Positions 2,449 to 18,081 of a stretch of DNA of 64,000 nucleotides are shown piece by piece (position 1 is the first letter of the stretch; every line of letters begins with the position of its first letter). The translations under genes and the position numbers were made by a program. The notes under the pieces were generated by a model. That model saw nothing but the letters and a program-made list of their open reading frames with translations. It ran no database searches and was not told the DNA's origin. This stretch comes from an uncultured Thermococci archaeon (lineage in GTDB: Archaea; Methanobacteriota_B; Thermococci; Methanofastidiosales; B48-G16), in contig CAZQQT010000007.1 of the NCBI GenBank assembly GCA_964595645.1, positions 72,809-136,808 of the forward strand, given 5' to 3'.

Positions 2449-5430
2449 TTGGATGACGATATCAAATTCAACCTAAATTATTTTGATGGTGGACACACAC
2501 ATCACGTTCTTAATAAAAGGGGTTATAAAGAGATTAAATTGAATCAAGACCCTCAGTTAAAGAGAAAATTTATCAATTGGTGTAAGACTAATGATTTACC
2601 CGAACTGCTTGAAAGAGTAAAAGACCTTGATAAAGGAAAAGAAAGAAAGGATATTATACTCTTAGTACCTCCAAATTACGGTCCGTCCGAAGAATATCAT
2701 TTACTGGGAGCATCCTCGTTTTCGAAGAGATACACTGAAGAAATGAATAGCAGGATAGAAACCACTGGATACATGTACTCGGGTTGGAATTACAGTATTA
2801 AAGAAGAGAAGAAAAAACATCTCTCCGTGCCCTTCCGGTTATATGTAGGTGAGAAGAAAAAGGTAAAGGGCTATTTCCGTGTAGTTGACTTTTGGACTGA
2901 TATTGAAGAAGATAAAGACTTAGAGAAGACATTAAATGATGAAAACTGGAGAGATCATTTTCGTGATGATGAACCTACTATAGATCCTACTCAGTGGAAC
3001 AGTACCCATGAAGAAATGTGGAAAACAAGAACGATCTTCAAATATGACAAAGTCGAAAGATTCTCAGAAGAAAAAGACCTAAGTGAGTTTGAAAATATTG
3101 AAGGCGAAACACCTCAATTCTATCAAAAAGGATTTGACGTAATTTGTGAAAAGAAAGAGGAGGGAAGAAAGATGGATAAAGATATGAATATTATAGGCGT
3201 AGTGGCTAAAGTTGCATGGTCTCATAACAGATGGAAGGGGTTTGATGAGGAGGGATATCGAAAAAGAGAAAATTATAACTATAAATTTGTGAGAATAAGC
3301 GGTCACGCCCATGAATGGTGGGGATTTTATGAAGATTTCGATAAAGATTACTACTATGGACATGTGGCGATGAGTGAAAGAACACCTAAGAAAAAGTTTA
3401 AAGACGCCTTAATACCTGTTATATCATATAACATTAATAATCGGGAGTTCTATCTTGTAGGTTTTTTTGGAAATGCAAAATTTACTGGAGAAAAATATAA
3501 AACAGAAACGAAAATGAAAAAACTACTCTCAGAAGACTGTATTGATAGTTTGCCACAAATTGCTGATAAATTTGATCAGGAGGATTGGAAGGATGCTGCA
3601 GAACGTATGAGAGACTTTATAAAAAACAAAATAAAGTATGACGGGAATATTAAAGCACCGAAAAAATTTTCTACAGTATTTGAAGAGGAAGCATATATTA
3701 AAATCGATCCACAGGAGGATCTAACCGTGGGGAGACTCGGACAGGCTCCCTACATGTACATCGGACATACCGAAACAGTCCCTCCAGAAAATGTTCATAA
3801 GTTACTGCTTAAAGCAAAAGAAAGACACGAGACGATCTTAAAAAATACTCAAGATGTAAATAAGGAGGAAGAAATTGAGGAGATAATTGAAAAAATTGAT
3901 CGTGTGGTAGATAAATACTTTTCCGAAGTGGAAAGAACTGCAGGACCCATAAATTATTACCTTGAAGTCTCTGCAGCGCCTTGGCAGGGTCCGATAGGAA
4001 AAATATTGGAAACAGGAGTAGATAGTAAATACAAAATGATGCAGGAATTAACTCCTGGAGACGTTGTAATTCATTATAGACCAAGCAGAGTAAGAAAGTA
4101 TCCCCAACGATTTGTTGGCTATTCGAAAGTTAAGAAGAGCGCAAAAACATTTAGTAGAGATGAATTGGTGCAATTTTTAAAGAATCGTGACATTTTGAGT
4201 GAAAAGTATAGAGAATTTGCAGAAGAAGGTGTTCTAAGCTATGATAAAGCTTGGATAGTGGAATTAAAAGATTTTAAAGAATTTAAAAATGAGAAAAAAC
4301 CAAGCTACCACACTGTAAAAGATCAACTTGGATTTAAGGTTACTGAAGGCTACCTTCATTCGTTAGATAAAGAAATTGCTGAAGGAATAATTAATCTAAG
4401 CGATCTAAAAGAACCGAACGAGAGAAAGGAAAAATGGAAAGACAAAAAACAAGATCTTGGCTACGAGATAGAGAGAAAATTCACTATCAATGGCCTATTT
4501 TTCCCCGAAGGAGAAAGGGAGACTCTTGAAAAACAGATCACTACGGCAATAAGAAACAGGAAACATATCATTCTCATTGGAGCTCCTGGAACGGGAAAAT
4601 CAAAGCTGGCAAAGGAAATTTGTGAATTCTATGTGGGGAATAAAAACTACATTATGAGTACTGCAACGTCTGACTGGTCAACGTTTGATACGATCGGTGG
4701 GTACCATCCTGACAAAGAAGGAAAACTGAATTTCAAAAGTGGTATATTCTTGCGATGTTTCAGGGACAGTGAAACTCTTAACCCTGAGGATCGATGGTTA
4801 ATAATAGATGAAATAAATCGGGCGGACATAGATAAAGCGTTCGGTTCATTATTCTCAGCCCTTACTGGAGACACCATCACACTGCCATTTGAGGTTGCAG
4901 ATGAACAGATAGAGGTCGTAGGAGATCCAAATGATGACGATGAGATTCAAGGGAACAAATTCATAATCCACCCAGACTGGCGGATTATCGCGACGATGAA
5001 CACCTATGACAAAGCTTCACTCTATGAAATGAGTTACGCATTTATGAGACGGTTTGCGTTTGTTCCTGTAGATGTCCCCAATGAAATTGACGAAGATCTA
5101 ATTCGAGAATATTTAGACATTTGGCATCTTGAAAGAGAGGAAAACGCTGAGTTAGTTGATAAAGTAACGAAGCTGTGGAAAACTATCAACAACTCCAGGA
5201 AAATAGGTCCGGCGATCATTAAAGATATCTATGAGTACCTCACTGAAGAGGATGATCTCACCAGCGCCGTGATCATGTACGTGTTGCCACAGTTTGAGGG
5301 ATTGCCAGAGGACAAAATATGCACCTTTGTGGATGAGTTAGATATTATTGAAGCAAAAGATGAACTCATAGATTTCTGCGTGGATTTCTTTGGAATTGCA
5401 CGAGAAAAATTCAAAAAATCATCTGAGTGA
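2449..5430 (+). CDS. McrB-family AAA+ GTPase with a long N-terminal extension. The specificity subunit of a McrBC-like modification-dependent restriction system.
   Basis: C-terminal third has Walker A (ILIGAPGTGKSKLAKEI) and the McrB-type signature (WLIIDEINRADIDKAFGSLFSAL). The first ~650 aa contain at least one PUA/EVE-like segment (...YYLEVSAAPWQGPIGKIL...GDVVIHYRPSRVRKYPQRFVGYSKV) and a Trp-rich segment (AWSHNRWKG...HEWWGFYEDF). TTG start. Confidence 0.6.
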   Translation: MDDDIKFNLNYFDGGHTHHVLNKRGYKEIKLNQDPQLKRKFINWCKTNDLPELLERVKDLDKGKERKDIILLVPPNYGPSEEYHLLGASSFSKRYTEEMNSRIETTGYMYSGWNYSIKEEKKKHLSVPFRLYVGEKKKVKGYFRVVDFWTDIEEDKDLEKTLNDENWRDHFRDDEPTIDPTQWNSTHEEMWKTRTIFKYDKVERFSEEKDLSEFENIEGETPQFYQKGFDVICEKKEEGRKMDKDMNIIGVVAKVAWSHNRWKGFDEEGYRKRENYNYKFVRISGHAHEWWGFYEDFDKDYYYGHVAMSERTPKKKFKDALIPVISYNINNREFYLVGFFGNAKFTGEKYKTETKMKKLLSEDCIDSLPQIADKFDQEDWKDAAERMRDFIKNKIKYDGNIKAPKKFSTVFEEEAYIKIDPQEDLTVGRLGQAPYMYIGHTETVPPENVHKLLLKAKERHETILKNTQDVNKEEEIEEIIEKIDRVVDKYFSEVERTAGPINYYLEVSAAPWQGPIGKILETGVDSKYKMMQELTPGDVVIHYRPSRVRKYPQRFVGYSKVKKSAKTFSRDELVQFLKNRDILSEKYREFAEEGVLSYDKAWIVELKDFKEFKNEKKPSYHTVKDQLGFKVTEGYLHSLDKEIAEGIINLSDLKEPNERKEKWKDKKQDLGYEIERKFTINGLFFPEGERETLEKQITTAIRNRKHIILIGAPGTGKSKLAKEICEFYVGNKNYIMSTATSDWSTFDTIGGYHPDKEGKLNFKSGIFLRCFRDSETLNPEDRWLIIDEINRADIDKAFGSLFSALTGDTITLPFEVADEQIEVVGDPNDDDEIQGNKFIIHPDWRIIATMNTYDKASLYEMSYAFMRRFAFVPVDVPNEIDEDLIREYLDIWHLEREENAELVDKVTKLWKTINNSRKIGPAIIKDIYEYLTEEDDLTSAVIMYVLPQFEGLPEDKICTFVDELDIIEAKDELIDFCVDFFGIAREKFKKSSE

Positions 5431-6263
5431 AGATAATGAAGGCAGGAGCTAAAACATTATTGGATGATATCGCTGAAGATTTCGTTCAGTATCTCAAAAG
5501 TGGTAATTTAAACATTAAATCGTTTTCTAAAAGGATAGATCCTACCCTCAACATCGATAATATTGAAAAATTGCTGAGGATACACTTTGTACTCACAGAA
5601 CAACGAGGAGAACACGGTGTTGGAGTAATTGATTTTATTGACAACCTCTCTGAAAGGATACGACGAATAAAAACGACGGTGAAAAAGACAAGAACGTTAT
5701 TCAGAGGAAAGGTGCGAGGAAAAATATGTTGGAAAGATACACTGCGGTATCGGTACAACTCAAATCCAAAGGATAGTACTCTTTTCGTCTGTGACAGACG
5801 GGAAAAAAATTACGAAATCTCAGAGAACCTAGTACTGAAAAGACTCCTTCAAATTATCCATGAGATTGTGTATACCGATCTACGAGTCGCGCTTGAAAAA
5901 GAGTACGAGTGGATCGGGGAATGGGCGTCGGAGGAAAAAAACCTAGAGAAAACGTTGAATCGGATATTCTTTAGAAATGTCTATCTGAGAAGAATTGATC
6001 TGACAGACGTGAAAGTCACTAATAGAATGATCAGTAGAGCGAAACGATCGAGACAGCCACTGTACAGAGAAGCAGCTGTGCTCCTCTCGCAGTATAGGGA
6101 GCTGATGAATTACGAGTTTGATCCGGAAGAGGCAAAAAACCTTCTGAAAAATACCTTCATCAACCCGGAGAAAACGGAGGTACTGTTTGAGCTGTACTGG
6201 ATAATTAAAATCATAAAAAAATCACTTTACCGATCCGAAGTTCCGGTTGATCGTTCCCGGTGA
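5427..6263 (+). CDS. McrC-like subunit, N-terminal fragment. Start overlaps the McrB stop.
   Basis: Position immediately 3' of the McrB-like gene with a GTGA overlap. Size and weak McrC-like features. It ends at a TGA that the next ORF (-1 frame) overlaps by 17 nt. Confidence 0.4.
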   Translation: MKIMKAGAKTLLDDIAEDFVQYLKSGNLNIKSFSKRIDPTLNIDNIEKLLRIHFVLTEQRGEHGVGVIDFIDNLSERIRRIKTTVKKTRTLFRGKVRGKICWKDTLRYRYNSNPKDSTLFVCDRREKNYEISENLVLKRLLQIIHEIVYTDLRVALEKEYEWIGEWASEEKNLEKTLNRIFFRNVYLRRIDLTDVKVTNRMISRAKRSRQPLYREAAVLLSQYRELMNYEFDPEEAKNLLKNTFINPEKTEVLFELYWIIKIIKKSLYRSEVPVDRSR

Positions 6264-6807
6264 GAATGTGGTAGCAGAATGGGTATCCGACGACTCTACA
6301 TACAGGATCTACCACGATTCCTGTGGGAGTTTTAAGTTCAAAGAGAGTATTGCATGGCTTAATGTTAATGCACAACTAAAAGACAAAGATAACTATCTTG
6401 GTCGGGAATTGCAAGTGATAGACATGCTGGAAAAAATGACGGGGAAGGGGTCGCAGGACAGTCTGTGGGGTGGCAGACCGGATATCGTACTCGAAAAATA
6501 CGATGAGAACGGTGACATTGTGTCAGTGCTAATAGGTGAGGTTAAATACACGGACAGCAAGAATTACGCGATTCAGGGCCTCAAAGAACTACTCGAATAT
6601 ATCGCATTGATCAAAGAAGGTGAGAACTACAAACTACGCTATGAGGATTTGTTCGAAAATATAGACGCAGTGAAGGGATGTTTATTCCTCGATGCGATCG
6701 CTGACTGGGAGATCGAAGAAGAAAAGAACATCTCAGTAGTGATGTTTGGTGAGGATTCTACCACGTTAAAAAACGTTATAGAGGGAGTGAAACGTGACTC
6801 GCGTTGA
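6247..6807 (+). CDS. McrC-like subunit, C-terminal PD-(D/E)xK nuclease fragment
   Basis: Nuclease core motif (GRPDIVL...VSVLIGEVKY) typical of the McrC catalytic domain. It continues the upstream ORF in another frame (278 + 186 aa, close to a normal McrC length). Confidence 0.45.
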   Translation: MIVPGENVVAEWVSDDSTYRIYHDSCGSFKFKESIAWLNVNAQLKDKDNYLGRELQVIDMLEKMTGKGSQDSLWGGRPDIVLEKYDENGDIVSVLIGEVKYTDSKNYAIQGLKELLEYIALIKEGENYKLRYEDLFENIDAVKGCLFLDAIADWEIEEEKNISVVMFGEDSTTLKNVIEGVKRDSR

Positions 6808-7186
6808 CCGTGCAAAAAACCGAAACATCATTGATATGGCACTCTCGTTTTCTGCGATGACAAGAATCTTTGAGAAAGGATCCACCGAAAAAGTACGGAA
6901 GAAGTTCTACAAGGATATTGACAAATTCTTCAGTATGCACCACGAAGAAGCTTCAACGAAAACAAACTGGACAAAAAAGTACTATATCGTTGCATTTTTA
7001 GAACTCAAGTATCCTCCAATTGATAGCACTAACTACAGAGAGTATGAAGCAGAAATCCAAAACAACATGCACTACCGCCGCGGAGATTTCGAGCGACACG
7101 ATAAAAGTTTTATCCTGAAAGGAACAAAGAACAGCGGGTGGCTTGAGAACCCAATCCGAATCGACGCGGGGGAGACGAGGAACTAA
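6794..7186 (+). CDS. Hypothetical protein (130 aa) in the defence island
   Basis: ORF overlaps the preceding stop. No recognisable motif. Confidence 0.3.
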   Translation: MTRVDRAKNRNIIDMALSFSAMTRIFEKGSTEKVRKKFYKDIDKFFSMHHEEASTKTNWTKKYYIVAFLELKYPPIDSTNYREYEAEIQNNMHYRRGDFERHDKSFILKGTKNSGWLENPIRIDAGETRN

Positions 7187-7346
7187 CTACCTCATGAAAA
7201 AAGAAATTGCGCAGTACAAACTAAAAAATAAAGAAAAACGAGGATTAAATAGGTGTTATTGTAGGTAGGTTGGAGGAATCTATAATTCCCTTGGTTCATG
7301 ATTGTAGAAAATAGTAGCTTCGTGTGGTTAGCGTATCTTTAAATTG

Positions 7347-7380
7347 AGATTTCTATTTGTTTTAATTTGTATAGAAATCT
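7347..7380. repeat. 10-bp perfect inverted repeat (agatttctat ... atagaaatct) with a 14-nt AT-rich spacer, 60 nt upstream of the 7442 gene
   Basis: Read directly from the sequence. Candidate operator or RNA hairpin. Confidence 0.3.
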
Positions 7381-7441
7381 AACTTTTATAGGTACTCTTT
7401 CGAAATGGAGAAAATATTTATAGAAAGACTTAGAAGTATAA

Positions 7442-8623
7442 TTGAAGGAAATTCCTATGAATAAAAATCTGGTTCAAAATTTGTATGGCGAATATGAAGA
7501 AAAAATAGATTCAATCATAAAAGAACATGGTGAAGAAGACGGTTTTATAACGGAAGGAAAGATGTGGTGGGACTATTACAAAGAGTTAATAGACGAAACG
7601 TTGGACAAGATTAAAAACGGCGAATTGACAGAAAAAGATGCTAAAAAGTTTTATAAAACTTTTGGATTTGGTCCCAAACTTTACGGCCGCACATTTATCG
7701 AAAATGGGTTATCTAGCATAGAAAAGTTATTTCTCTTCTTAGCCGATGGTGATATTCCTGCGGAAAGAAAAATCGCTGAAGTAGTAGAAGATCCAGAAAG
7801 TGAAAACTATTTTAGAGGCGTAGGTATCAACTTTGTTACTCTCTTCTTAACGACTTTTTTCCCTAAAAAATACGTGCAATGGAATAGGCAAACAGATGGA
7901 GCTTTGGAATTGTTAAAGATCTATCCGGAGAAGGAAAGAGGAGAGAAAAAATCTGAGTTCTATTCAAAAATAAATAGTGTCTGCAAAGAGATCGGTAGAA
8001 CTGTGGATGTCAATTTTTTACCGAAGATTGATAACTTCCTTTACTGTCTAAACAAAGGATATATTGGAACAGAAATAGTTGAACCTGAGTACGAAAAGGA
8101 AGCAAAGAAAAAGGAAGAACTTGAAGAAAAAGAACTGAAAACGGAAGAGGTAAGAACCCATACGAAAATGATGTACTATCTTATAAAAATAGGATTAAAG
8201 AAAAACTATAATGTGTGGGTTGCTAAAAATGACAGAAATAAAGAATATAGGGAAGAAAAATTTTCAGACCTCTGTTTAAGCGAAATACCAAATTTTACAG
8301 GACCCGATACATTAGCAATCGCAAAGTATATAGATGTGATATGGTTTAGAAAAAATACTTTACATCCTGTCCGTTTTTTTGAGATAGAACACACCACAAC
8401 AATTTATTCTGGATTATTGCGATTAAACGATGTTGCAGTGGATTATCCTATTGGCAAAGCAACGATTGTCATTCCGGAAGAAAGGATTAATTTATTTGAA
8501 ACACAGATAGATAGACGAACCTTCAAAGTGGGCACCGATTTATCGGATGTATGTGACTATTTAACTTACGGAGATCTAAAAAAGTGGTATGAAGCAGTAA
8601 ATATTGATTCAAAATACTCATAG
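7442..8623 (+). CDS. Hypothetical protein (393 aa). The C-terminal ~150 aa have possible restriction-endonuclease-like (Hjc/Mrr-type) features.
   Basis: C-terminal segment ...NYNVWVAKNDRN...GPDTLAIAKYIDVIWFRK(x12)FFEIEHTT... resembles a D...(D/E)x(K/H) nuclease core. The N-terminal ~240 aa are unrecognised. Confidence 0.35.
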   Translation: MKEIPMNKNLVQNLYGEYEEKIDSIIKEHGEEDGFITEGKMWWDYYKELIDETLDKIKNGELTEKDAKKFYKTFGFGPKLYGRTFIENGLSSIEKLFLFLADGDIPAERKIAEVVEDPESENYFRGVGINFVTLFLTTFFPKKYVQWNRQTDGALELLKIYPEKERGEKKSEFYSKINSVCKEIGRTVDVNFLPKIDNFLYCLNKGYIGTEIVEPEYEKEAKKKEELEEKELKTEEVRTHTKMMYYLIKIGLKKNYNVWVAKNDRNKEYREEKFSDLCLSEIPNFTGPDTLAIAKYIDVIWFRKNTLHPVRFFEIEHTTTIYSGLLRLNDVAVDYPIGKATIVIPEERINLFETQIDRRTFKVGTDLSDVCDYLTYGDLKKWYEAVNIDSKYS

Positions 8624-8783
8624 CACGATTCACTCCAAGATTTGATAACAACACTGTGTAGAGGAAAGAGTTGAATTCGTAAAACTCTAGAAAGATCCTC
8701 GCAAGAGAGGAAAGGAGGATAATATTCGCTTACCAGCCTCGTAGTTATTTTACAGTTCAAAGTAGATACTCACGAGGAAAGGA

Positions 8784-8797
8784 TAAATTTTAAATAG
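8784..8797 (+). promoter_or_regulatory. Candidate archaeal TATA box (ATAAATTTTAAATA) ~40-50 nt upstream of the hsdM start
   Basis: AT-rich box at the expected distance. An AGGAGGAGG ribosome-binding site lies at 8823-8831. Confidence 0.2.
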
Positions 8798-8836
8798 AAT
8801 CTAGTGGAATAATAACAAAGAGTAGGAGGAGGAATA

Positions 8837-10363
8837 ATGCAAAAAAAACTAGGAAAAATGACACTTGATAGGCTTGAATCACATTTATGGGAGTCTGCAA
8901 ACATTTTGAGAGGAAGTATCGACTCATCTGACTACAAGAATTATATTTTTGGTCTACTGTTTCTGAAACGGCTGAGTGATGTATTCGAAGAGAAACAAGA
9001 AGAAATCAGGAAAAATCATGGAGAAGAATTTATCGAAGATAGAGACTTCCATGAGTTTTATGTGCCTGAGAGAGCCCGCTGGGACAACATCAAAGAAAAA
9101 ACACAAGACATTGGTGCAGAACTAAACAAAGCATTTGAAGTCTTGGAGGAAGAAAACAGTCTTTTAGAGGGAGTATTAGTCAGCATTGACTATAACGATA
9201 AAGAACGGCTACCTGACAACGTGCTAGAAGAACTCATTCAACATTTCACAACATATGGGTTGGGGAACAAGGATCTGGAGGATCCCGATCTGTTAGGCAG
9301 AGCCTACGAATACCTCATCCGACAGTTTGCCGACGATGCAGGGAAAAAAGGAGGTGAGTTTTACACACCTCGAGGCGTGGTTAAACTGATAGTGGAGATA
9401 CTGGATCCGAAGGAAGGAATGAGAATCTACGACCCCTGTTGCGGATCCGGTGGAATGCTGATATACTCTGCAAAGCATTTAGAAGAGAATGGTCACAGCC
9501 CTTCGGAAATATCGCTGTACGGACAGGAACGGAATCTGAATACCTGGGCCATCTGCAAGATGAACATGTTGCTTCATGGGTTATACGATGCAAAAGTAGA
9601 GAAGGGAGATACCATGCGGGATCCAAAGTTCGTGGAGGAAGGAACATTGCAGCAGTTCGATATTGTGGTCGCAAATCCTATGTGGAACCAGAGTTCGTGG
9701 AGCAAAGAGTACCTCAAAAATGCCGAGCCGTATGGGCGCTTCTCTTATGGACTTCCACCAAAGAACTCGGCGGACTGGGCGTGGATACAACACATGCTGG
9801 CCAGCACACACAAAAAGGGGAAGGTCGGCGTTGTTTTGGATAACGGTGTGCTGTTCAGAAGCAGAAGTGAGGGTAAAATCAGGGAGAAGGTGATAAAAGA
9901 CGATCTCATTGAAGCCGTCATTGCCCTCCCACCAAATCTATTCTACAACACATCGTCTCCGGGAACGATCCTCATTCTCAACAAGGACAAACCTACCGAG
10001 CGAAAAGATAAAGTCATCTTCGTGTATGCCGAGGAGGAATACAGAGAAGGAAGTGCACAGAATTTCTTGGAAGAAGAGCACATCCAGAAGATCGTGGATG
10101 CTATCGAAGATTATGAAGATCAAGAGAGATTCTGCAGAGTCGTTGGATATGAAGAGATCGAGAAGAACGACTTTAATTTAAATGTTCCCAGGTATGTGGA
10201 TACTATTGAGCCGGAGGAACCGATAGATGTGAACGAAGCATGGGCTGAGTTGAAAGAAGTTGAGCAGGAAAGAGACGAGATTACGAGTGAGATGAACGGA
10301 TATCTGGAGGAGATCGGGTATGATTACTCTATGGTTGAGGGAAGTGGTGGGAAAGAAAAATGA
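8837..10363 (+). CDS. hsdM: Type I restriction-modification system, N6-adenine DNA methyltransferase subunit HsdM
   Basis: N-terminal HsdM_N region (LWESANILRGS...YKNYIFGLLFLKRLSD). AdoMet-binding motif I (IYDPCCGSGGML). Catalytic NPMW(N) motif IV (VVANPMWNQ). Confidence 0.9.
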   Translation: MQKKLGKMTLDRLESHLWESANILRGSIDSSDYKNYIFGLLFLKRLSDVFEEKQEEIRKNHGEEFIEDRDFHEFYVPERARWDNIKEKTQDIGAELNKAFEVLEEENSLLEGVLVSIDYNDKERLPDNVLEELIQHFTTYGLGNKDLEDPDLLGRAYEYLIRQFADDAGKKGGEFYTPRGVVKLIVEILDPKEGMRIYDPCCGSGGMLIYSAKHLEENGHSPSEISLYGQERNLNTWAICKMNMLLHGLYDAKVEKGDTMRDPKFVEEGTLQQFDIVVANPMWNQSSWSKEYLKNAEPYGRFSYGLPPKNSADWAWIQHMLASTHKKGKVGVVLDNGVLFRSRSEGKIREKVIKDDLIEAVIALPPNLFYNTSSPGTILILNKDKPTERKDKVIFVYAEEEYREGSAQNFLEEEHIQKIVDAIEDYEDQERFCRVVGYEEIEKNDFNLNVPRYVDTIEPEEPIDVNEAWAELKEVEQERDEITSEMNGYLEEIGYDYSMVEGSGGKEK

Positions 10364-11871
10364 GAATCCTCTTGGATACGAACATATTGATATATCGGGA
10401 ATCAAACCAGATTCTTTCTGAGGACATCCAAGAGCTGACAAAAATACTGAATCGAGGTGACTTTGATATTCTAATTCACCCCGCAACTTTTGATGATATT
10501 AGTAAAGACGGGTATGAAAAAAGAAAAAGGATTATGGAATCTAAGTTCAAAACATATTCTACATTAGAAAAACCTCCGAACCCATTGGAAGATCAAGAAT
10601 TTTTAGATCGCGTTGAATGGTATTCACATCCCGAGGACGAGATTGACAATAAAATTCTTTATGCAGTATGCAGAAATGCAGTTGATTTTTTAATCACTGA
10701 AGATCATGGGATACATCACAATGCTAAGGAGATTGGTATTGATGAACGTGTTCTTCTTGCACAAGACGCTTTGAAATTATTTGAACAAAAGGAAGAAAAA
10801 CCTCCGAATGTACCTCCATCGTTGGAAAAAAATTATGTTTACAATTTGGACATTTCCGATCCTATTTTCGATAGCTTAAAAAGAGATTATCCGGATTTCG
10901 AGGATTGGTTTGAGAAAATATCGAAAGAGGGAAGGAAATGTTATGTTAACCGTAGAAAAGACGGTAAAGTAGGTGCTTTGTTGATATATAAACTGGAAGA
11001 AGAAGATATGACCAACACAAGTCCACCTTTACCATTGAAAAGGAGATTAAAAATATGTACCTTAAAAGTCACTCATGTCGGTTATAAGATAGGAGAACTA
11101 TTCATTAAAACCTCAGTAGACATGGCATTGAAAAAAGGTTGTGAACAAATCTATCTCACACATTTCACAGAACCCGACGATAGATTGGTATCATTGATAA
11201 ACGATTTTGGGTTTTACAAAGGAGCGGTTAAACATTGGGATGATGGTCGAGAAGAAGACATTTTTTTGAAAGAACTATTTGCCGGAGATGACGTAGAACA
11301 ATTATCCCCGCTAGAGATCTCTGAAAAATATTATCCAACATACTATCATGGAAGAAATGTTCGCAAATTTATTGTACCAATAGTCCCAAAGTACCACGAT
11401 AGGCTATTCACCGACTGCGGGGGACGACAAACCTTTTTACATGAACATGCTGGCGAGTTCGTAACGGAGGGAAACACAATAAAAAAAGCTTATTTAAGCC
11501 ATTCAAAAACCGGAATGGTAAGACCAGGCGATATTCTGCTCTTTTATCGTTCTCATGATCAACAAAGAATAACTTCTCTCGGTGTTGTGGAAAAAGTTCA
11601 TGATGAACTTACAAATGCAGGTGAAATAGCCAGTATTGTGGGTAAACGTACTGTCTATTCGTTAAGAGAAATAGAAGAAATGTCAGAAAAAGAAACAAAG
11701 GTAATTTTGTTTAGACATCACTTTCACTTGCCTCTTCCACTAGATTATAAATTCTTGAGGAAACAATCCATAATCAAAGGGCCTACAAGGTCTATAACTA
11801 AAATCGACCACGATAACTATTTAAAAATGGTTGAAAAAGGTGGTATAGATGAACGTTTTACTGTCGATTAA
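10360..11871 (+). CDS. Three-domain fusion inserted in the hsd operon: N-terminal PIN-domain nuclease, central GNAT-like acetyltransferase fold, C-terminal PUA/ASCH-like domain
   Basis: PIN signature (MRILLDTNILIY...DFLITED). GNAT-like block (GALLIYKL...LKICTLKV...GYKIGELFIKTSVDMALKKGCEQIYL). C-terminal PUA-like block (GMVRPGDILLFYRSHDQQRITSLGVVEKV). ATGA overlap with the hsdM stop. Confidence 0.5.
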   Translation: MRILLDTNILIYRESNQILSEDIQELTKILNRGDFDILIHPATFDDISKDGYEKRKRIMESKFKTYSTLEKPPNPLEDQEFLDRVEWYSHPEDEIDNKILYAVCRNAVDFLITEDHGIHHNAKEIGIDERVLLAQDALKLFEQKEEKPPNVPPSLEKNYVYNLDISDPIFDSLKRDYPDFEDWFEKISKEGRKCYVNRRKDGKVGALLIYKLEEEDMTNTSPPLPLKRRLKICTLKVTHVGYKIGELFIKTSVDMALKKGCEQIYLTHFTEPDDRLVSLINDFGFYKGAVKHWDDGREEDIFLKELFAGDDVEQLSPLEISEKYYPTYYHGRNVRKFIVPIVPKYHDRLFTDCGGRQTFLHEHAGEFVTEGNTIKKAYLSHSKTGMVRPGDILLFYRSHDQQRITSLGVVEKVHDELTNAGEIASIVGKRTVYSLREIEEMSEKETKVILFRHHFHLPLPLDYKFLRKQSIIKGPTRSITKIDHDNYLKMVEKGGIDERFTVD

Positions 11872-12253
11872 ACCAAAATATGTTGAAAAGATCGCCGAGG
11901 GTGAGAAGAAACTGGAGTTCAGAAAGGTGATCTTCAAGGACGAGAACAGGCCGGACACCATATACATATATTGCACCTCTCCTGTCAAGAAGATAATCGG
12001 CTATTTCACCACCGGTGAGATCTTCGAGGACGACCCGGCCGAGCTCTGGGACAGGTTCCATAACCTTGCAGGTATAAGTGAAGAGGAGTTCTTCGATTAC
12101 TTCTCGGGAAAGGAAAGAGGATACGCCATCGGTATCGAGGACTTCAACCAGTTCGACAACGCTATCGACCCTTACGAAGTGATCCCGGGATTCACACCAC
12201 CCCAGTCCTTCTGCTATATGAACGACGATCTCCAGAGGTATCACGATGTCTGA
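11849..12253 (+). CDS. ASCH-domain (PUA-like superfamily) protein
   Basis: Highly typical ASCH N-terminus (MNVLLSIKPKYVEKIAEGEKKLEFRK) and core (GYFTTGEIF...PQSF). It overlaps the upstream stop and the hsdS start. Noticeably more GC-rich than the flanking genes. Confidence 0.65.
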   Translation: MNVLLSIKPKYVEKIAEGEKKLEFRKVIFKDENRPDTIYIYCTSPVKKIIGYFTTGEIFEDDPAELWDRFHNLAGISEEEFFDYFSGKERGYAIGIEDFNQFDNAIDPYEVIPGFTPPQSFCYMNDDLQRYHDV

Positions 12254-13568
12254 GTACAAGGAAGTGCAGATCGGGCCCAAGACGGTGGAGATACCTGTGG
12301 AGTGGGATAAAGTTAAAGTTGAAGGTATTTTCGAGATAATTAAAGGGCAAAGTTATAAAAGTAAATATTATGCTGATGAAGAGGATGGGTTTATATTCAT
12401 TAATTTAAAATGTATAAACAAGAAAGGAGGATTTAATAAAGAAGGTATAAAATTTTATCAGGGACCTTTTGCAGAGAAAAATTTTGTTGAACCAGGAAAT
12501 TTGATAATGGCCAATACAGATTTAAACCGTGACGCAGAAGTAGTAGGATATCCTCTTTATGTACCAGAATTTAATAATGAAAAAAAAATAGGAATATCTA
12601 TGGATGTCTCAGTGTTAAGAAAAAAGAACAGTTGTGTAATTGATAAATATTTTTATTATTTATTTAGCAATGAGATTATTCACGGTGCAGTACAAAATTT
12701 TGCTGAAGGATCAACTGTATTACATCTTGATTTAGATTCTGTAAAAAATTTAACAATCCCCCTCCCACCACTCCCCGAACAGCGCCGTATCGCAGAGATC
12801 TTATCTACCGTGGACGATGCCATCCAGAAGACGGATGAGGTCATCGAGAAGGCGGAGAGGTTGAAGAAGGGGCTGATGCAGGACCTGTTGACCAAGGGGA
12901 TAGGGCACGATGAGTTTAAGGAAGTGCAGATCGGGCCGAGATCTATTAAAATCCCCAAAGAATGGGATATTAAGAATTTACAACCGTCCAATGGGATTGT
13001 AAAAAAAGTTACTGATGGATCCCATTACTCACCACCCCAAATAGAAGAGGGTGAATATCTTTACGCAACCGTTACGAACTTTAGCGATAGGGGTATAGAT
13101 TATGGAACATGTAATAAAATAAATGAAGAAGAATATCTTAAGATGGTAGAAGGGGGTAATAAACCTCTGAAAGGAGATGTACTTTTCAGTAAAGATGGGA
13201 CTATTGGAATCACTGATGTATATGAAGATGATGAAGATGTGGTATTACTTTCGTCCATTGCAATCATTAGGCCTATACAAAATCAAGTAAATCCAATTTA
13301 TTTGAAATATTTTCTATCTTCAAAAGAAATCGAACATCAAATACGTTCTTTTAAAAGTGGAACTGCGATTCGCCGTGTAGTTCTTAGAGATATCAAAAAA
13401 TTCAAAATTCCACTACCATCTCTACCCGAACAGCGCCGCATCGCAGAGATTCTATCAAATATCGACAGTAAAATCCAAAAAGAAAAATCCTATAAACAAA
13501 ACCTCCAGAAACTCAAAAAAGGATTGATGCAGGACCTGTTGACAGGAAAAGTGAGGGTGAATACATGA
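12246..13568 (+). CDS. hsdS: Type I R-M specificity subunit HsdS with two target-recognition domains
   Basis: Two-fold internal repeat architecture. Each TRD is preceded by (E/Y)KEVQIGP(K/R) and followed by the conserved coiled-coil LP(P/S)LPEQRRIAEILS...KKGLMQDLLT(K/G). Confidence 0.85.
   Translation: MSEYKEVQIGPKTVEIPVEWDKVKVEGIFEIIKGQSYKSKYYADEEDGFIFINLKCINKKGGFNKEGIKFYQGPFAEKNFVEPGNLIMANTDLNRDAEVVGYPLYVPEFNNEKKIGISMDVSVLRKKNSCVIDKYFYYLFSNEIIHGAVQNFAEGSTVLHLDLDSVKNLTIPLPPLPEQRRIAEILSTVDDAIQKTDEVIEKAERLKKGLMQDLLTKGIGHDEFKEVQIGPRSIKIPKEWDIKNLQPSNGIVKKVTDGSHYSPPQIEEGEYLYATVTNFSDRGIDYGTCNKINEEEYLKMVEGGNKPLKGDVLFSKDGTIGITDVYEDDEDVVLLSSIAIIRPIQNQVNPIYLKYFLSSKEIEHQIRSFKSGTAIRRVVLRDIKKFKIPLPSLPEQRRIAEILSNIDSKIQKEKSYKQNLQKLKKGLMQDLLTGKVRVNT
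12771..12893 (+). repeat. hsdS central conserved region, copy A of an intragenic direct repeat (...ccgaacagcgccgtatcgcagagatc...ctgatgcaggacctgttgac...)
   Basis: Near-identical DNA to 13421..13545. Classic hsdS repeat that enables TRD shuffling. Confidence 0.7.
13421..13545 (+). repeat. hsdS distal conserved region, copy B of the intragenic direct repeat
   Basis: Matches 12771..12893 at DNA level. A second short repeat pair lies at 12249..12292 and 12912..12955 (gag t(a/t)(c/t)aaggaagtgcagatcgggcc). Confidence 0.7.
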
Positions 13569-16500
13569 CACAGGATTGGACTGAGTACCACCTGACGGAG
13601 AAACCAGCATTAGATCTTCTAGAAGAGCTGGGGTATACAGTCTACGATATCAATGAGACCTTTGAACGACCGGAACGAGACTTGTTGCGAGAGGTGCTGT
13701 TACTGAACAACGTACGGTCGGCGATTCAACGAATTAACCCATGGATCTCAGAGAATAACCTCAATAAAGCGGTGAACATGATCCGTCCCACAAGAATCCG
13801 GGCCGCTGGAATGATAGAAGCCAACGAGATCACCTACACCCGACTGGTCAAGTACATCTCAGTTCCTCAGGATCTGGGAAAAGGAAAAAAGAATCAGACG
13901 GTAAAGTACATTGATTTTGAGCATCCTGAAAACAACGAGTTCTTGGCACTGAACCAGTACAAGGTAAAAGGACACGAGAAAATAAAACCGGACATCGTGA
14001 TCTTTGTTAACGGCATTCCCATCGGCGTCATCGAGTGCAAAAACGAGACTACCTGCGATGATCCAGAGGACGATGCCATCGATCAGTTGCGACGGTATCA
14101 GAACATTCGGTACGAGAATGAGAATGAAGGTGCAGAGCAACTGTTTTATCCTAACCAAATACTTGTAGCAGCCTGGCGGGATTCTGCCTCCTCCTGTGCC
14201 ATTGGTGCACCAGCCCGACAGTTCAAAGCGTGGAAGGATCCCTATCCACACACAAAAGAAGAGATTCGATCCGTAGTCGGAAGAAACGTTACCCTCCAAG
14301 ATATACTCCTCTTCTCCCTCTTCAAAAAAGATCGTCTGCTAGATCTCATTCAGAACTTCATCGTGTTTGAACGCGCAGGAAACAAGCTCATCAAAAAACT
14401 GGCGCGGTACCAGCAGTATCGAGCAGTAACCAAAGCTGTCGAACGGATAAAGAACGCAGACACACTGATTGATCGGAGTGGTACTGTCTGGCACACTCAG
14501 GGATCGGGGAAGTCTCTCTCCATGCTCTTTTTGGCCCTCAAACTGCGACGAATGGAAGGACTGGGAAATCCCACACTTCTCGTAGTAACAGACAGAATCG
14601 ATCTCGACGACCAGATCACCGGTACCTTCGAACGGTGCGGATTTCCAAATCCAATCCAAGCGCAAGATACAGACAATCTCAAAGAGTTGCTCAGAAGAAA
14701 CGTCGGAAAAACGATTATGACGACGGTGCACAAATTCCAGGAACGTGTGAAGGAGAAATACCCTGTTCTCACTGAAGATACGAATGTGTTTGTAATGGCC
14801 GACGAGGCACACAGGACACAGTACAAAGACTTGGCGGCAAATATGCGAAGAGCCTTGCCCAACGCCTGCTACTTGGGATTCACGGGGACGCCTATCGACA
14901 AAGAAGAGAGAAGCACACTGCGGACCTTCGGATCCTATATCGACACCTACACCATCGATGAGTCCGTTGACGATGGAATGACGCTCAATATCCTTTACGA
15001 GGGAAGAATCCCTGAGTTACGAGTTGAAGGACGCGATCTCGACGATTTATTCGACAGAATATTCAAAAACTACTCCAACGAAGAGAAGAAAAAAATAAAA
15101 GAGAAGTACGCAACTGAACGAGACATTGCTGAAGCAAAATCCAGAATTGAACGGATATGTCTTGATATCATCGATCATTACGAATCAAAAATATATCCCC
15201 TCAAAGGACAGATAGTAACAGTGAGCAGAGAAGCAGCCGCCAGATACAAGGAAGCAATGGACAGGTTTAACGGACCTGAGTCTGCTGTGATCATCAGCAG
15301 TGATCAGAACGATCCGCCGCTTCTCAAGAAGTACCATACATCTGCTGGTGAACGAAAGCATCTTATTGAAACATTTAAAGATCCGGAAAGTAATCTCTGC
15401 CTCCTCATTGTCTGTGATATGCTGCTGACTGGATTTGACGCACCAGTAGAGCAGGTAATGTATTTAGACAAGCCGCTCAAAGAACATAATCTCCTGCAAG
15501 CGATTGCACGAGTGAACAGACGGTTTGAAGAGAAAAATTATGGTCTTATTGTGGACTACTATGGCGTGTTTGATTACCTCCAAGAAGCATTGGCCGTCTT
15601 CAATAAAAAGGATATAGAAAACGCTGTCACCCCCATCAAGGATGAAAAACCGAGGCTGGAGAGAACGTATAGACAGGTTATGCAGTTTTTTGAAGGAGTG
15701 GATCTTGATGACCTCGATGAGTGCATCCTAACCTTTAAAGACGAAGACAAACGACTGAAGTTCAAACGTGCTTTTAAAGCCTTTGCAAAGAGCATGGATA
15801 TCGTTATGCCCGATCCAATCGCGGATCCGTACCGTGAGGATCTCAAAACACTGGGGAAAATTTACAAAGCGGTGAGAAACCACTACCGTGACAGCTCTTT
15901 GGACATAAAGGGTGTTGGTGGGAAGGTAAAGCGGCTAATAGATGAACATATTCGCGCAACCGACATCAAAATACTCAATGAACCGGTCTCTATTCTTGAC
16001 AAAGAGGAGTTCGATCGTACTGTAGAAGAGCATGAAAATATTGAGACTAAAGCTAGTGAGATGGAACACGCAATCCGAAGTGAGATTAGTGTGAAAATGG
16101 AAGAGAACCCTGTCTTTTACCAATCGCTGAAAGAACGGTTAGAGGAAATTATCGAAAAGAGAGTCCAGGGAAGATTCACCTTTACCAAACAGTTAGAAGA
16201 AATGAGAGAGATAATCCACGAAATTCGAGATGTGAGGACAAAAGCCGAGAAGCTAGGATTGAATGAGCGAGAGTTTGCTCTCTACGAACTGCTCCTCGAC
16301 GAAAGAGAACATGAACGGGTGGAGACAGTGAGTGAGAGTACGGGAGCCTACCATCCTGGTGGTCCTGAACTGCATATTAATAAAAAGGTTAGAGATTTAT
16401 CCAAACAATTAATGGACGACCTTGAAGACATGAGAGTCGTGGATTGGAAGGAAAAGAAAATGATTCTAAAAGAAATGAGAAAAGTGATCAAACTCACGTT

Positions 16501-16579
16501 GAGTGAGTACAAAGAATTCAAGAAAAATCTGGATAGCGTCACAACGAAAGTGATCAAACTCGCGAGGAATATCCTATGA
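13565..16579 (+). CDS. hsdR: Type I R-M restriction subunit HsdR (SF2 helicase/translocase plus N-terminal PD-(D/E)xK nuclease)
   Basis: Nuclease motif (PDIVIFVNGIPIGVIECK). Helicase motif I (TQGSGKSLSM), motif II (DEAH: VMADEAHRTQ) and later motifs (TGFDAP, QAIARVNR). 1004 aa. ATGA overlaps at both ends. Confidence 0.9.
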   Translation: MTQDWTEYHLTEKPALDLLEELGYTVYDINETFERPERDLLREVLLLNNVRSAIQRINPWISENNLNKAVNMIRPTRIRAAGMIEANEITYTRLVKYISVPQDLGKGKKNQTVKYIDFEHPENNEFLALNQYKVKGHEKIKPDIVIFVNGIPIGVIECKNETTCDDPEDDAIDQLRRYQNIRYENENEGAEQLFYPNQILVAAWRDSASSCAIGAPARQFKAWKDPYPHTKEEIRSVVGRNVTLQDILLFSLFKKDRLLDLIQNFIVFERAGNKLIKKLARYQQYRAVTKAVERIKNADTLIDRSGTVWHTQGSGKSLSMLFLALKLRRMEGLGNPTLLVVTDRIDLDDQITGTFERCGFPNPIQAQDTDNLKELLRRNVGKTIMTTVHKFQERVKEKYPVLTEDTNVFVMADEAHRTQYKDLAANMRRALPNACYLGFTGTPIDKEERSTLRTFGSYIDTYTIDESVDDGMTLNILYEGRIPELRVEGRDLDDLFDRIFKNYSNEEKKKIKEKYATERDIAEAKSRIERICLDIIDHYESKIYPLKGQIVTVSREAAARYKEAMDRFNGPESAVIISSDQNDPPLLKKYHTSAGERKHLIETFKDPESNLCLLIVCDMLLTGFDAPVEQVMYLDKPLKEHNLLQAIARVNRRFEEKNYGLIVDYYGVFDYLQEALAVFNKKDIENAVTPIKDEKPRLERTYRQVMQFFEGVDLDDLDECILTFKDEDKRLKFKRAFKAFAKSMDIVMPDPIADPYREDLKTLGKIYKAVRNHYRDSSLDIKGVGGKVKRLIDEHIRATDIKILNEPVSILDKEEFDRTVEEHENIETKASEMEHAIRSEISVKMEENPVFYQSLKERLEEIIEKRVQGRFTFTKQLEEMREIIHEIRDVRTKAEKLGLNEREFALYELLLDEREHERVETVSESTGAYHPGGPELHINKKVRDLSKQLMDDLEDMRVVDWKEKKMILKEMRKVIKLTLSEYKEFKKNLDSVTTKVIKLARNIL

Positions 16580-17313
16580 AATCTACAGAAAAAGTCTCCC
16601 TTGGAAAAACAACAATTCACTACAAAATTGTTCGGAGTAAGAGAAAGACGTTGGGAATTAAAGTTGGACTTGAAGAAGGAGTAATTGTTAGAGCACCGAC
16701 TCACTTACCGGTGGACGTTATACGAAAAAAGGTACAAGAAAAGGGGGACTGGATTCTACAAAAACTTGAAAAAATGGGTGAAATTGAGCCGAAACCAGCT
16801 CCTAAAGAATTTATGAGTGGAGAAAAATTGCCGTATTTAGGAAGAAGATATAGGTTAAAGGTTAATAAGGAAAATAATAGTTCTAAAGAAGTTGATGTGA
16901 GATTATATCGTGGTAAATTTTATATTGGCCTCAGCTCTCAGATAAACGAGAGTGAGAGAAGGACGAAAATACGGCAAGCGCTAATCAAATGGTATAGATC
17001 GCACGCACAAAAAAGAATCGCAGAAAGAGTAGAGAAGTATCAATCCAAAATTGGTGTAACGCCTGCGAAAGTAAAGGTAAAGCATCAAAAGAAACGGTGG
17101 GGGAGTTGCTCCAACAAGCGCAACCTGAACTTCAACTGGAGAATTATCATGGCCCCGATATCGCTTGTTGACTACGTGGTAGTACACGAACTTACTCATC
17201 TTAAGTACCCACATCACTCAAAAGAGTTCTGGGATACTATTGCATCAATTCTTCCTGACTATAAAGAAAGACGTGAAAGGTTAAGGGTAAAGGGAAACAC
17301 GTTAGAATTTTAG
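16576..17313 (+). CDS. DUF45/YgjP-like (WLM/M48-type) zinc metallopeptidase
   Basis: HExxH motif in the typical context (DYVVVHELTHLKYPHHSKEFW). Translationally coupled to hsdR. This family recurs next to hsdR genes. Confidence 0.7.
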   Translation: MKSTEKVSLGKTTIHYKIVRSKRKTLGIKVGLEEGVIVRAPTHLPVDVIRKKVQEKGDWILQKLEKMGEIEPKPAPKEFMSGEKLPYLGRRYRLKVNKENNSSKEVDVRLYRGKFYIGLSSQINESERRTKIRQALIKWYRSHAQKRIAERVEKYQSKIGVTPAKVKVKHQKKRWGSCSNKRNLNFNWRIIMAPISLVDYVVVHELTHLKYPHHSKEFWDTIASILPDYKERRERLRVKGNTLEF

Positions 17314-17370
17314 ATAGAGAGAATAGTATAGTAGAAGATTTATAAAGATCATCTGCGAAGAGAGAGGAGG

Positions 17371-18081
17371 GTGTGTGGTATGAAAAATTCATTCACGCTT
17401 CGTGAACTGCCAGAAGAAGAAAGACCAAGAGAGCGTCTTCAAACTCTTGGAGTGAATTATCTCTCAATGCAAGAACTATTAGCCTTAGTAATTGAAAGGG
17501 GAAGTAGAGGAAAGAATGTGTTGACTATTGCCCAAGAACTCCTCGCTACGTTCGGGAACCTCTCCAAAATCAAAGAAGCTTCCATAGAACAACTTCAACA
17601 GGTCGATGGAATCGGGATTGCTACTGCATGTAAGCTAAAGGCCTCGCTAAAATTAGGTGAAAAAGCATTGATCGTGCACGAACGGTATGGACAAAAAGTG
17701 GAATCACCGGAAAATATATTCCATTTACTTAAAAATGACCTGGGAAACAAAAAGAGAGAACATTTTAAAATAATCTTATTGAACACGAAAAAACATATTA
17801 TAGCCATTGAAAATATCTCTATCGGATCTTTAAATAGTAGCATTGCACACCCACGAGAGATATTCCGTTCTGCTATTCAACATGCAGCGGATTCTGTAAT
17901 TTTGGTGCATAATCATCCTTCGGGTGATCCTAGTCCAAGTGATGACGATATTGAGCTCACTGAAAGACTCATAAAGGTGGGAGATATTTTGGGTATAAAA
18001 GTAGTAGACCATGTGATTATCGCTGGTAAGTCCTTCGTGAACCTTCGGGGGGAGGAAGAAACTGCTGGAATATGGAAATAA
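17371..18081 (+). CDS. radC: RadC-like JAB/MPN-domain protein (HhH plus JAMM metalloprotease motif)
   Basis: HhH region (LQQVDGIGIATACKL). JAMM motif (ILVHNHPSGDPSPSDDD). Confidence 0.75.
   Translation: MCGMKNSFTLRELPEEERPRERLQTLGVNYLSMQELLALVIERGSRGKNVLTIAQELLATFGNLSKIKEASIEQLQQVDGIGIATACKLKASLKLGEKALIVHERYGQKVESPENIFHLLKNDLGNKKREHFKIILLNTKKHIIAIENISIGSLNSSIAHPREIFRSAIQHAADSVILVHNHPSGDPSPSDDDIELTERLIKVGDILGIKVVDHVIIAGKSFVNLRGEEETAGIWK

Follow-up and report, generated by a model that had tools for sequence, protein, structure and literature searches.

A predicted glycosylase-fold sensor fused to an NmeDI_C nuclease domain, and an adjacent gene scar, in a restriction island of an uncultured Thermococci archaeon

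In this work we analyzed two open reading frames (ORFs) in a 64,000-nucleotide stretch of DNA from an uncultured Thermococci archaeon (contig CAZQQT010000007.1, positions 72,809 to 136,808 of the forward strand), referred to as the window. Both are present in a mechanical ORF list of the sequence: 6794..7186 (+, 130 amino acids (aa), GTG start) and 7442..8623 (+, 393 aa, TTG start). A first inspection of the sequence, the original prediction, had proposed that both were candidates for additional defence or anti-defence functions, given their position between two restriction systems. For the large gene, defence is the best-supported reading: with a probability of about 0.7, it would encode a restriction nuclease of the END type that stands alone as one polypeptide and is probably modification-dependent in the manner of type IV enzymes. 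The END nucleases of a recent preprint (Yee et al., bioRxiv 2025, PMC12191111) consist of a nuclease joined to an EndoIII/Ogg sensor that has been inactivated. For the 130-aa ORF the proposal fails, since this ORF is a chimeric pseudogene. Window coordinates are used throughout.

Architecture of the large gene product

The true start of the large gene is almost certainly the ATG at 7457, which yields a product of 388 aa, and not the TTG at 7442 (393 aa), since a public protein of 100% identity (P0001) is 388 aa long and all the homologues align from that methionine. Of 90 homologues identified, 73 cover nearly the whole length, at 37-72% identity. No match for the large ORF was obtained with NCBIfam, PHROGs or a local copy of Pfam that lacks PF27126, and a single-sequence search of the PDB sequences returned nothing meaningful. 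The possibility of a housekeeping protein, which the original prediction had set against its own proposal, found no support, since no housekeeping family claims the large protein. The AlphaFold2 model, built from a 67-sequence alignment, has a mean predicted local distance difference test (pLDDT) score of 90.4 and shows two domains joined by a disordered linker. The features of the gene are as follows:

7457..8623 (+): intact gene, 388 aa plus stop, for a predicted two-domain nuclease (homologues and AlphaFold2 model)
7457..8080 (+): N-terminal all-helical domain, aa 1-208, with a predicted HhH-GPD/Ogg2-like glycosylase fold (model)
7817..7885 (+): HhH segment G121-V-G-I-N125 ... W142-N143 (gap-free profile alignment to the Ogg2 chain 9o01)
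8081..8143 (+): Lys/Glu-rich flexible linker, aa 209-229 (pLDDT <50; length and sequence vary in the alignment)
8144..8620 (+): C-terminal alpha/beta PD-(D/E)XK domain, aa 230-388, Pfam NmeDI_C
8333..8389 (+): putative catalytic motif D293 ... E309-I-E311-H312 (IDVIWF ... FFEIEH), a D...ExE variant (invariance)

When the predicted structure of the N-terminal domain was compared with Foldseek, the top matches were MjaOgg (3knt), 3n0u and SsOgg (3fhg), with probabilities of 0.96-1.00 (1.00 for 3knt), followed by MutY, EndoIII and OGG1. Sequence identity to the Ogg2 enzymes is 13-15%, and the profile of the domain aligns without gaps, and weakly (E=0.18, PDB sequences), to the HhH segment of the Ogg2 chain 9o01. 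In this alignment N125 occupies the position of the catalytic Lys and N143 that of the catalytic Asp, with an identical spacing of 18 residues; the canonical HhH-GPD catalytic Lys and Asp are thus both replaced by Asn. Among the deposited Ogg2 chains, 9o00 and 3fhf were taken as wild type since their K and D are unsubstituted, 9o01 carries Asp→Asn, 9o02 Lys→Ser, and 3knt Lys→Gln; K and D are thus the residues that depositors replaced in order to inactivate the enzyme for crystallography. N143 is invariant in the 67 family members and in 104 diverse members of the superfamily, and Tyr169 is also strictly invariant across the superfamily. The pocket that would receive a flipped base is lined by W37, Y66, F126, W142, N143 and Y169. 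The Lys position varies within the family, being Asn in one clade and Ala (GVGRAF) in the other. The N-terminal domain is best read as a glycosylase-derived base reader that is predicted to be non-catalytic.

For the C-terminal segment, the original prediction had pointed to a resemblance to a restriction-endonuclease-like fold (D-VIW...FFEIEH), and this resemblance is borne out by two profiles. The Pfam family NmeDI_C (PF27126) is a precomputed assignment of P0001 and of all the homologues, and the PADLOC profile REase_II (PDLC03534), whose 351 positions equal the length of R.NmeDI, matches aa 226-343 with E=1.8e-10. This match covers only positions 169-294 of the 351 in the model, and no recognition half like that at the N-terminus of NmeDI was found in the protein. 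The conservation of the putative catalytic residues, proposed as a check of the same idea, holds: D293, E309 and E311 are invariant in 67 full-length homologues (alignment A2) and in 17 remote NmeDI_C relatives that carry other N-terminal domains, EVE among them (alignment A5). In the latter alignment, the proteins P0075, P0083 and P0087-P0090 share yet another N-terminal domain (...GNSLF...RYSKxH...GFFGLR...DGQYKVQ...), which is neither EVE nor the HhH sensor; this unannotated domain may be a further reader module for NmeDI_C. Proteins that match NmeDI_C only are present in many Alphaproteobacteria.

The putative sensor is a module that has been combined with many effectors. Its profile recovered 963 cluster representatives at E<=1e-3 among 1.84 billion proteins, and the partners found among 104 long profile matches were NucS_C (28), the YhcG_C PDDEXK domain (21), the McrB-like AAA_5 (14), HNH (8), HNH_2 (7), PLDc_2 (6), EVE (5), RE_NgoFVII (3) and MrcB_N (2). 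Two of these sensor-profile proteins match the Pfam family OGG (PF21790), which is the family aligned to END-PaCF1 in PMC12191111. Proteins with an N-terminal PLD domain and a C-terminal sensor, which is the END-PaCF1 architecture, were matched at E~1e-12 to 1e-14. The nearest relatives of the sensor carry HNH, and one carries TIR_2: this protein (P0124, 519 aa) is the closest sensor relative that has no NmeDI_C domain (E=6.6e-62; TIR_2 at E=1e-23). With an effector of the TIR type, the expected outcome would be signalling or abortive infection and not cleavage of DNA. Given that only 2 of the other 145 sensor-bearing cluster representatives have an NmeDI_C-type C-terminal domain, the combination of this sensor with NmeDI_C represents a small clade.

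Proposed function and alternative readings

Full-length relatives were found in a few metagenome-assembled genomes of scattered phyla (Calditrichaceae, Actinomycetota, Bathyarchaeia, Chloroflexi/Anaerolineales, Aminicenantes, Coatesbacteria and Acidiferrales), and the gene context was counted in 11 distinct loci with full-length homologues. In nine of them the neighbours are housekeeping, integrase or transposase genes, with no methyltransferase or restriction-modification gene nearby. One locus (L004) has an N6-methyltransferase and an S subunit directly downstream of the homologue, an N6-methyltransferase being also immediately downstream of the gene in the window; another (L018) has HsdR and YgjP upstream. 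McrBC was found near none of the 11. A conserved co-occurrence with hsd or mcr genes, which had been suggested as a check, is therefore not seen, with one locus for methyltransferase plus S, one for HsdR and none for McrBC. Such a context is compatible with an enzyme that works by itself, does not depend on a methyltransferase and now and then ends up in a defence island.

The most likely function of the protein would be the modification-dependent restriction of phage DNA that contains unusual bases. The N-terminal domain would descend from an HhH-GPD glycosylase of the Ogg2/EndoIII type that lost both catalytic residues (Lys→Asn125 and Asp→Asn143); it probably still scans DNA and flips out non-canonical bases, and would act as a sensor of modified or hypermodified phage DNA and no longer as an enzyme. 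Modified bases would be the trigger, possibly modified purines as for END-Mag. The flexible linker would connect this sensor to the NmeDI_C PD-(D/E)XK domain, in which D293, E309 and E311 would serve to hydrolyse the backbone; by analogy with R.NmeDI, cleavage would probably occur at some distance from the sensed base, with the enzyme acting as an oligomer. Host DNA, free of the modification, would be spared, and a cognate methyltransferase would not be needed.

Several points weigh against this reading. The sequence similarity to Ogg2 is weak, and the kinship with glycosylases draws mainly on the predicted structure. N143, which never varies at the position of the Asp, could itself be catalytic or play some other part. 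The window protein and its NmeDI_C-type subfamily are known from sequence and predicted structure. The gene lies 213 bp upstream of hsdM, and a functional link to the type I system may exist. Lastly, several homologues (L005, L007-9 and L014) are located amid housekeeping genes with no mobile or defence neighbours, which would fit a repair role as well.

An enzyme of DNA repair or damage response, whose Ogg-like domain would read oxidised or alkylated bases in the DNA of its own cell while the nuclease nicks or cleaves beside the lesion, would also account for the fact that the best structural matches are 8-oxoguanine repair glycosylases. In contrast, the full-length family is rare and scattered over unrelated phyla with no vertical pattern, and the window gene is placed in a low-GC island between restriction systems. 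Moreover, the sensor is also fused to effectors of the TIR, HNH, PLD and McrB types, typical of immunity, and it would be dangerous for a cell to direct a double-strand-cutting restriction endonuclease domain at lesions in its own DNA; we consider such a repair enzyme unlikely.

The pocket formed by Asn143 and Tyr169 might also represent a new form of the HhH-GPD fold that acts by catalysis or by covalent trapping, in which the excision or trapping of a modified or damaged purine is coupled to double-strand cleavage by NmeDI_C. This idea, which we judge to be unlikely, would make the protein a hybrid restriction enzyme that combines base excision with phosphodiesterase activity. In a related possibility, the protein would respond not to modifications of the phage but to damage that phages induce in the DNA of the host. 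The TIR-fused sensor of P0124 would then belong to a wider family of immune triggers that sense bases, abortive-infection effectors among them.

It seems quite unlikely that the large gene encodes a conventional type II enzyme of the NmeDI family that cuts a specific unmodified sequence, with the host shielded by HsdM or by a methyltransferase encoded elsewhere. One homologue bears the JGI label 'type II restriction enzyme', the cleavage domain takes its name from R.NmeDI, which is a true type II enzyme, and it is matched by REase_II. The positions of the L004 homologue, directly upstream of the N6-methyltransferase and S genes, and of the window gene, upstream of hsdM, could be taken in the same sense. 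However, the NmeDI-type profile is matched only in the C-terminal half (169-294 of 351), the N-terminal half being of the predicted glycosylase fold, and the large gene has no overlapping C5-methyltransferase gene of the kind found with NmeDI. A restriction-modification neighbour is absent from 9 of the 11 distinct loci, the hsdM of the window has S and R partners of its own, and the same cleavage domain is fused elsewhere to EVE readers of modified bases.

Very unlikely, in our view, is an N-terminal domain that remains an active glycosylase of non-canonical chemistry and carries out restriction by base excision, the strand being broken by the PD-(D/E)XK domain or by AP-lyase chemistry. Stand-alone glycosylases of the HhH superfamily (Dag) have been reported to defend against 7-deazaguanine phages (bioRxiv 10.1101/2025.10.29.685425), and the lack of any change at Asn143 and Tyr169 throughout the superfamily indicates strong selection on the pocket region. 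Nonetheless, crystallographers inactivated Ogg2 by replacing precisely these two residues (Asp→Asn, Lys→Gln/Ser), the Lys position is not conserved even within the family, and the END preprint concluded that its own sensors are inactive (PMC12191111).

If the END reading is true, the principle of a dead repair glycosylase reused as a broad sensor of non-canonical bases would reach uncultured bacteria and archaea of anaerobic and sediment environments, and NmeDI_C would be added to the effector families of this sensor. The fusions of the sensor to HNH and TIR are not among the END fusions listed in the consulted sections of PMC12191111. Proteins of this type could be possible reagents for the detection of hypermodified DNA, and they may be a sign that modified phage genomes are frequent in such habitats.

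The 130-aa ORF and the surrounding island

The original prediction described the product of the 130-aa ORF as a protein with no recognisable features; instead, the ORF is an in-frame chimera of fragments of two unrelated genes, followed by a frameshift. These fragments are:

6806..6949 (+): remnant of the first ~50 codons of a ~195-aa gene of the P0095/P0096 family (tblastn, 63% identity to aa 6-53 of the 192-aa P0095)
6947..7180 (+): remnant of an Nmad3-domain gene (tblastn, 60% identity over 78 aa, corresponding to aa 96-172 of the 225-aa P0092)
7173..7262 (+): continuation of the Nmad3 remnant in a shifted frame (70% identity over 30 aa, aa 171-200 of P0092, ...KRGLNRCYC)

Codons 5-52 of the ORF correspond to the N-terminus of the ~195-aa gene that comes after McrC in an intact operon (metagenomic locus L094), and of this product only aa 6-53 are present in the window. 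The two segments similar to P0092 have a combined E value of 2e-34 (tblastn), and the second of them lies in frame +3, the preceding segment being in frame +2. P0092 and P0094 match the Pfam domain Nmad3 (PF18754), which spans ~247 profile positions; the 130-aa ORF does not hold this domain at full length in one frame and gives no Pfam match. Residues 1-95 of P0092 are absent from the window, and the missing portions of both source genes were not found elsewhere in it. Only 6 matches to the ORF were obtained among 5.8 billion proteins, each of them partial and none end to end. By sequence, the ORF is a chimeric pseudogene, or junction scar. It would mark the place where, through a deletion or an insertion, the beginning of the McrBC operon's third gene was joined to an inner stretch of the Nmad3 gene. 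Of the two apparent defence-island genes, one is real and the other is a recombination scar.

That the ORF encodes a functional small protein, such as a regulator or an anti-defence factor, is highly improbable: its 130-codon open frame overlaps the stop of McrC in the style of an operon member and NCBI annotates a product of 116 aa (P0091), but it has no end-to-end homologue and no Pfam, NCBIfam, PADLOC or PHROG match, its halves match two unrelated proteins in part, the Nmad3 reading frame runs on out of frame past its stop, and the adjoining McrC is also frameshifted, which suggests a decaying segment. The predicted role as an extra defence or anti-defence gene is therefore not retained for this ORF. 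A conserved pairing of an Nmad3-like gene with the large gene was also considered and rejected, since neither Nmad3-like nor P0095-like sequence was present near the homologues of the large gene in 94 fetched loci; the treatment of the two ORFs as a pair has no support for the same reason.

The neighbouring genes place the large gene as the original prediction had stated, between an McrBC module (McrB and McrC genes upstream) and a type I restriction-modification operon (HsdM, HsdS and HsdR downstream):

2449-5430: McrB-like AAA_5 protein, 993 aa (AAA_5 at E=9.6e-19; NCBIfam McrB at 1.1e-18)
5427-6807: McrC-like gene, between the McrB-like gene and the 130-aa ORF
8837-10363: HsdM (N6_Mtase at E=1.4e-112), of the type I operon downstream of the large ORF
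12246-13568: HsdS, type I operon
13565-16579: HsdR (SWI2_SNF2 and HSDR_N), type I operon

The claim that these genes lie in an AT-rich island agrees with the GC profile, which is 0.34-0.46 across 1-18 kb, with a minimum of 0.34-0.35 at the large ORF, and 0.52-0.58 at 18-21 kb. A scan of 6700-8900 for promoters and terminators gave fewer sites than in shuffled sequence, and no tRNA or Rfam family was found in the window.

In L094 the gene order is EVE-McrB (1186 aa), McrC (455 aa), P0095, which overlaps the stop of McrC, and RadC. Since the intact order has P0095 after McrC, the 5' piece of the 130-aa ORF is taken to be the stump of the third gene of the McrBC operon. Relative to L094 (5148-6300), the window has an extra stretch (~6950-17370) between this stump and RadC (17371-18081), which holds the Nmad3 stump, the sensor-nuclease gene, the type I operon and a YgjP-like gene; it looks like a second defence block inserted into an McrBC-RadC island.

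The McrC of the window is split by a one-base frameshift into two overlapping ORFs, 5427-6263 and 6247-6807. Residues 1-264 of the L094 McrC match 5436-6227 in frame 3 and residues 261-454 match 6217-6804 in frame 1, with 70-78% identity, and the frame switches at or near a run of seven A (6215-6221). The frameshift could be a true pseudogene, phase variation or an assembly error, and the McrBC module, as assembled, may be inactive. The N-terminal ~690 aa of the McrB-like protein (2449-4500) form a very long region with no Pfam match, and the L094 homologue bears an EVE domain. The presence of the HhH-type sensor in this region was rejected, since in a six-frame translation of the window the N-domain profile matches only the 7442-8620 frame.

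The P0095/P0096 family (~195 aa, no Pfam match) is represented at 5148-5726 of L094, at 8001-8594 of L002 and by the remnant at 6806-6949 of the window. Its gene follows McrC with an overlapping stop in one locus and precedes an Mrr-type restriction gene in another, and the family may assist or regulate restriction systems of type IV. Further downstream, the interval between hsdM and hsdS (10360-12253) holds two genes that match the PADLOC candidate families PDC-M11A (E=4.7e-160, with PIN_3 at the N-terminus) and PDC-M11B (E=1.6e-48, with a weak ASCH match); this pair is a candidate defence system nested within the type I operon. A YgjP-like metallopeptidase gene (E=1.5e-63) lies directly 3' of hsdR, with overlapping stop and start, and RadC comes next (16576-18081). 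In L018 the homologue of the sensor-nuclease gene is likewise located just downstream of an HsdR-YgjP pair.

Comparison with known systems

R.NmeDI, a type II enzyme of Neisseria meningitidis, recognises RCCGGY and cuts unmodified DNA 12/7 on both sides; it needs two sites, acts as a tetramer, and its gene overlaps that of its cognate C5-methyltransferase (PMC2095814). The window protein shares with it the family of the C-terminal cleavage domain (PF27126 and the PADLOC REase_II profile). In contrast, R.NmeDI recognises its site through its own N-terminal half, where the window protein has the predicted glycosylase-fold domain, and no adjacent cognate methyltransferase was found in the window: the pseudogene lies upstream of the large gene, and downstream is a type I hsdM that has its own S and R.

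With the Ogg2 glycosylase/AP lyases (MjaOgg, 3knt/3fhf; Tm1821, 3n0u; SsOgg, 3fhg) the N-terminal domain has in common the predicted fold, the size of ~205 residues and the gap-free HhH segment; it differs from them in Asn125 and Asn143 in place of Lys and Asp, in an identity of only 13-15%, and in the fused nuclease. The Dag glycosylases likewise represent an HhH-superfamily fold recruited to sense modified phage DNA, but they stand alone and are catalytically active, whereas in the window protein the canonical catalytic residues are missing and a nuclease is part of the same chain. The EVE-NmeDI_C proteins (P0076, P0077, P0081, P0082 and P0086) have the same cleavage domain with the same invariant residues, joined to a modified-base reader in one polypeptide; their reader, in contrast, is an EVE domain of the PUA superfamily and not HhH-GPD, and the modifications sensed are presumably other.

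The closest parallels are the END nucleases, and to this extent the large protein, which had been called uncharacterised, is only partly so: its architecture matches that of the nucleases described in 2025 (PMC12191111). The window protein combines the predicted HhH-GPD fold, the loss of the catalytic residues at sequence level, the sensor homology and an intact fused nuclease. The sensor homology to the END architectures is seen in profile matches to proteins with PLDc_2/RE_NgoFVII, NucS_C or AAA_5 at E<=1e-11, a comparison made at the level of architecture; fusions of McrB to the sensor are noted in the preprint as well. END-PaCF1, which consists of a PLD nuclease and an iEndoIII sensor, has been shown experimentally to restrict only phages with various hypermodifications. 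It has the same logic of sensor plus nuclease, and its sensor is homologous at the sequence-profile level. It differs in its PLD/HxK nuclease and C-terminal sensor, as opposed to the PD-(D/E)XK domain and N-terminal sensor of the window protein, and in its hosts, Pseudomonas and enterobacteria for END-PaCF1 and uncultured anaerobic or sediment lineages for the window-protein family.

END-Mag (MDV2503288.1), from a pelagic-sediment metagenome, joins a 'NucS-like' PD-DExK nuclease to an archaeal-Ogg-like sensor and has been shown experimentally to restrict only phages with hypermodified DNA, namely those with modified G. The nuclease of the window protein, in contrast, is NmeDI_C and falls below the Pfam threshold for NucS_C; END-Mag also has phage-restriction data, whereas for the window protein the comparison relies on sequence and predicted structure. 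Both are single polypeptides from sediment metagenome lineages, in which a PD-(D/E)XK nuclease is combined with an HhH-GPD sensor devoid of the catalytic residues. In both, the closest solved relatives of the sensor are archaeal Ogg2 enzymes (3FHG in PMC12191111; 3n0u, 3knt and 3fhg here). END-Mag needs no methyltransferase partner; in the family of the window protein, 9 of the 11 loci have no restriction-modification gene nearby, and an N6-methyltransferase is immediately downstream in L004 and in the window.

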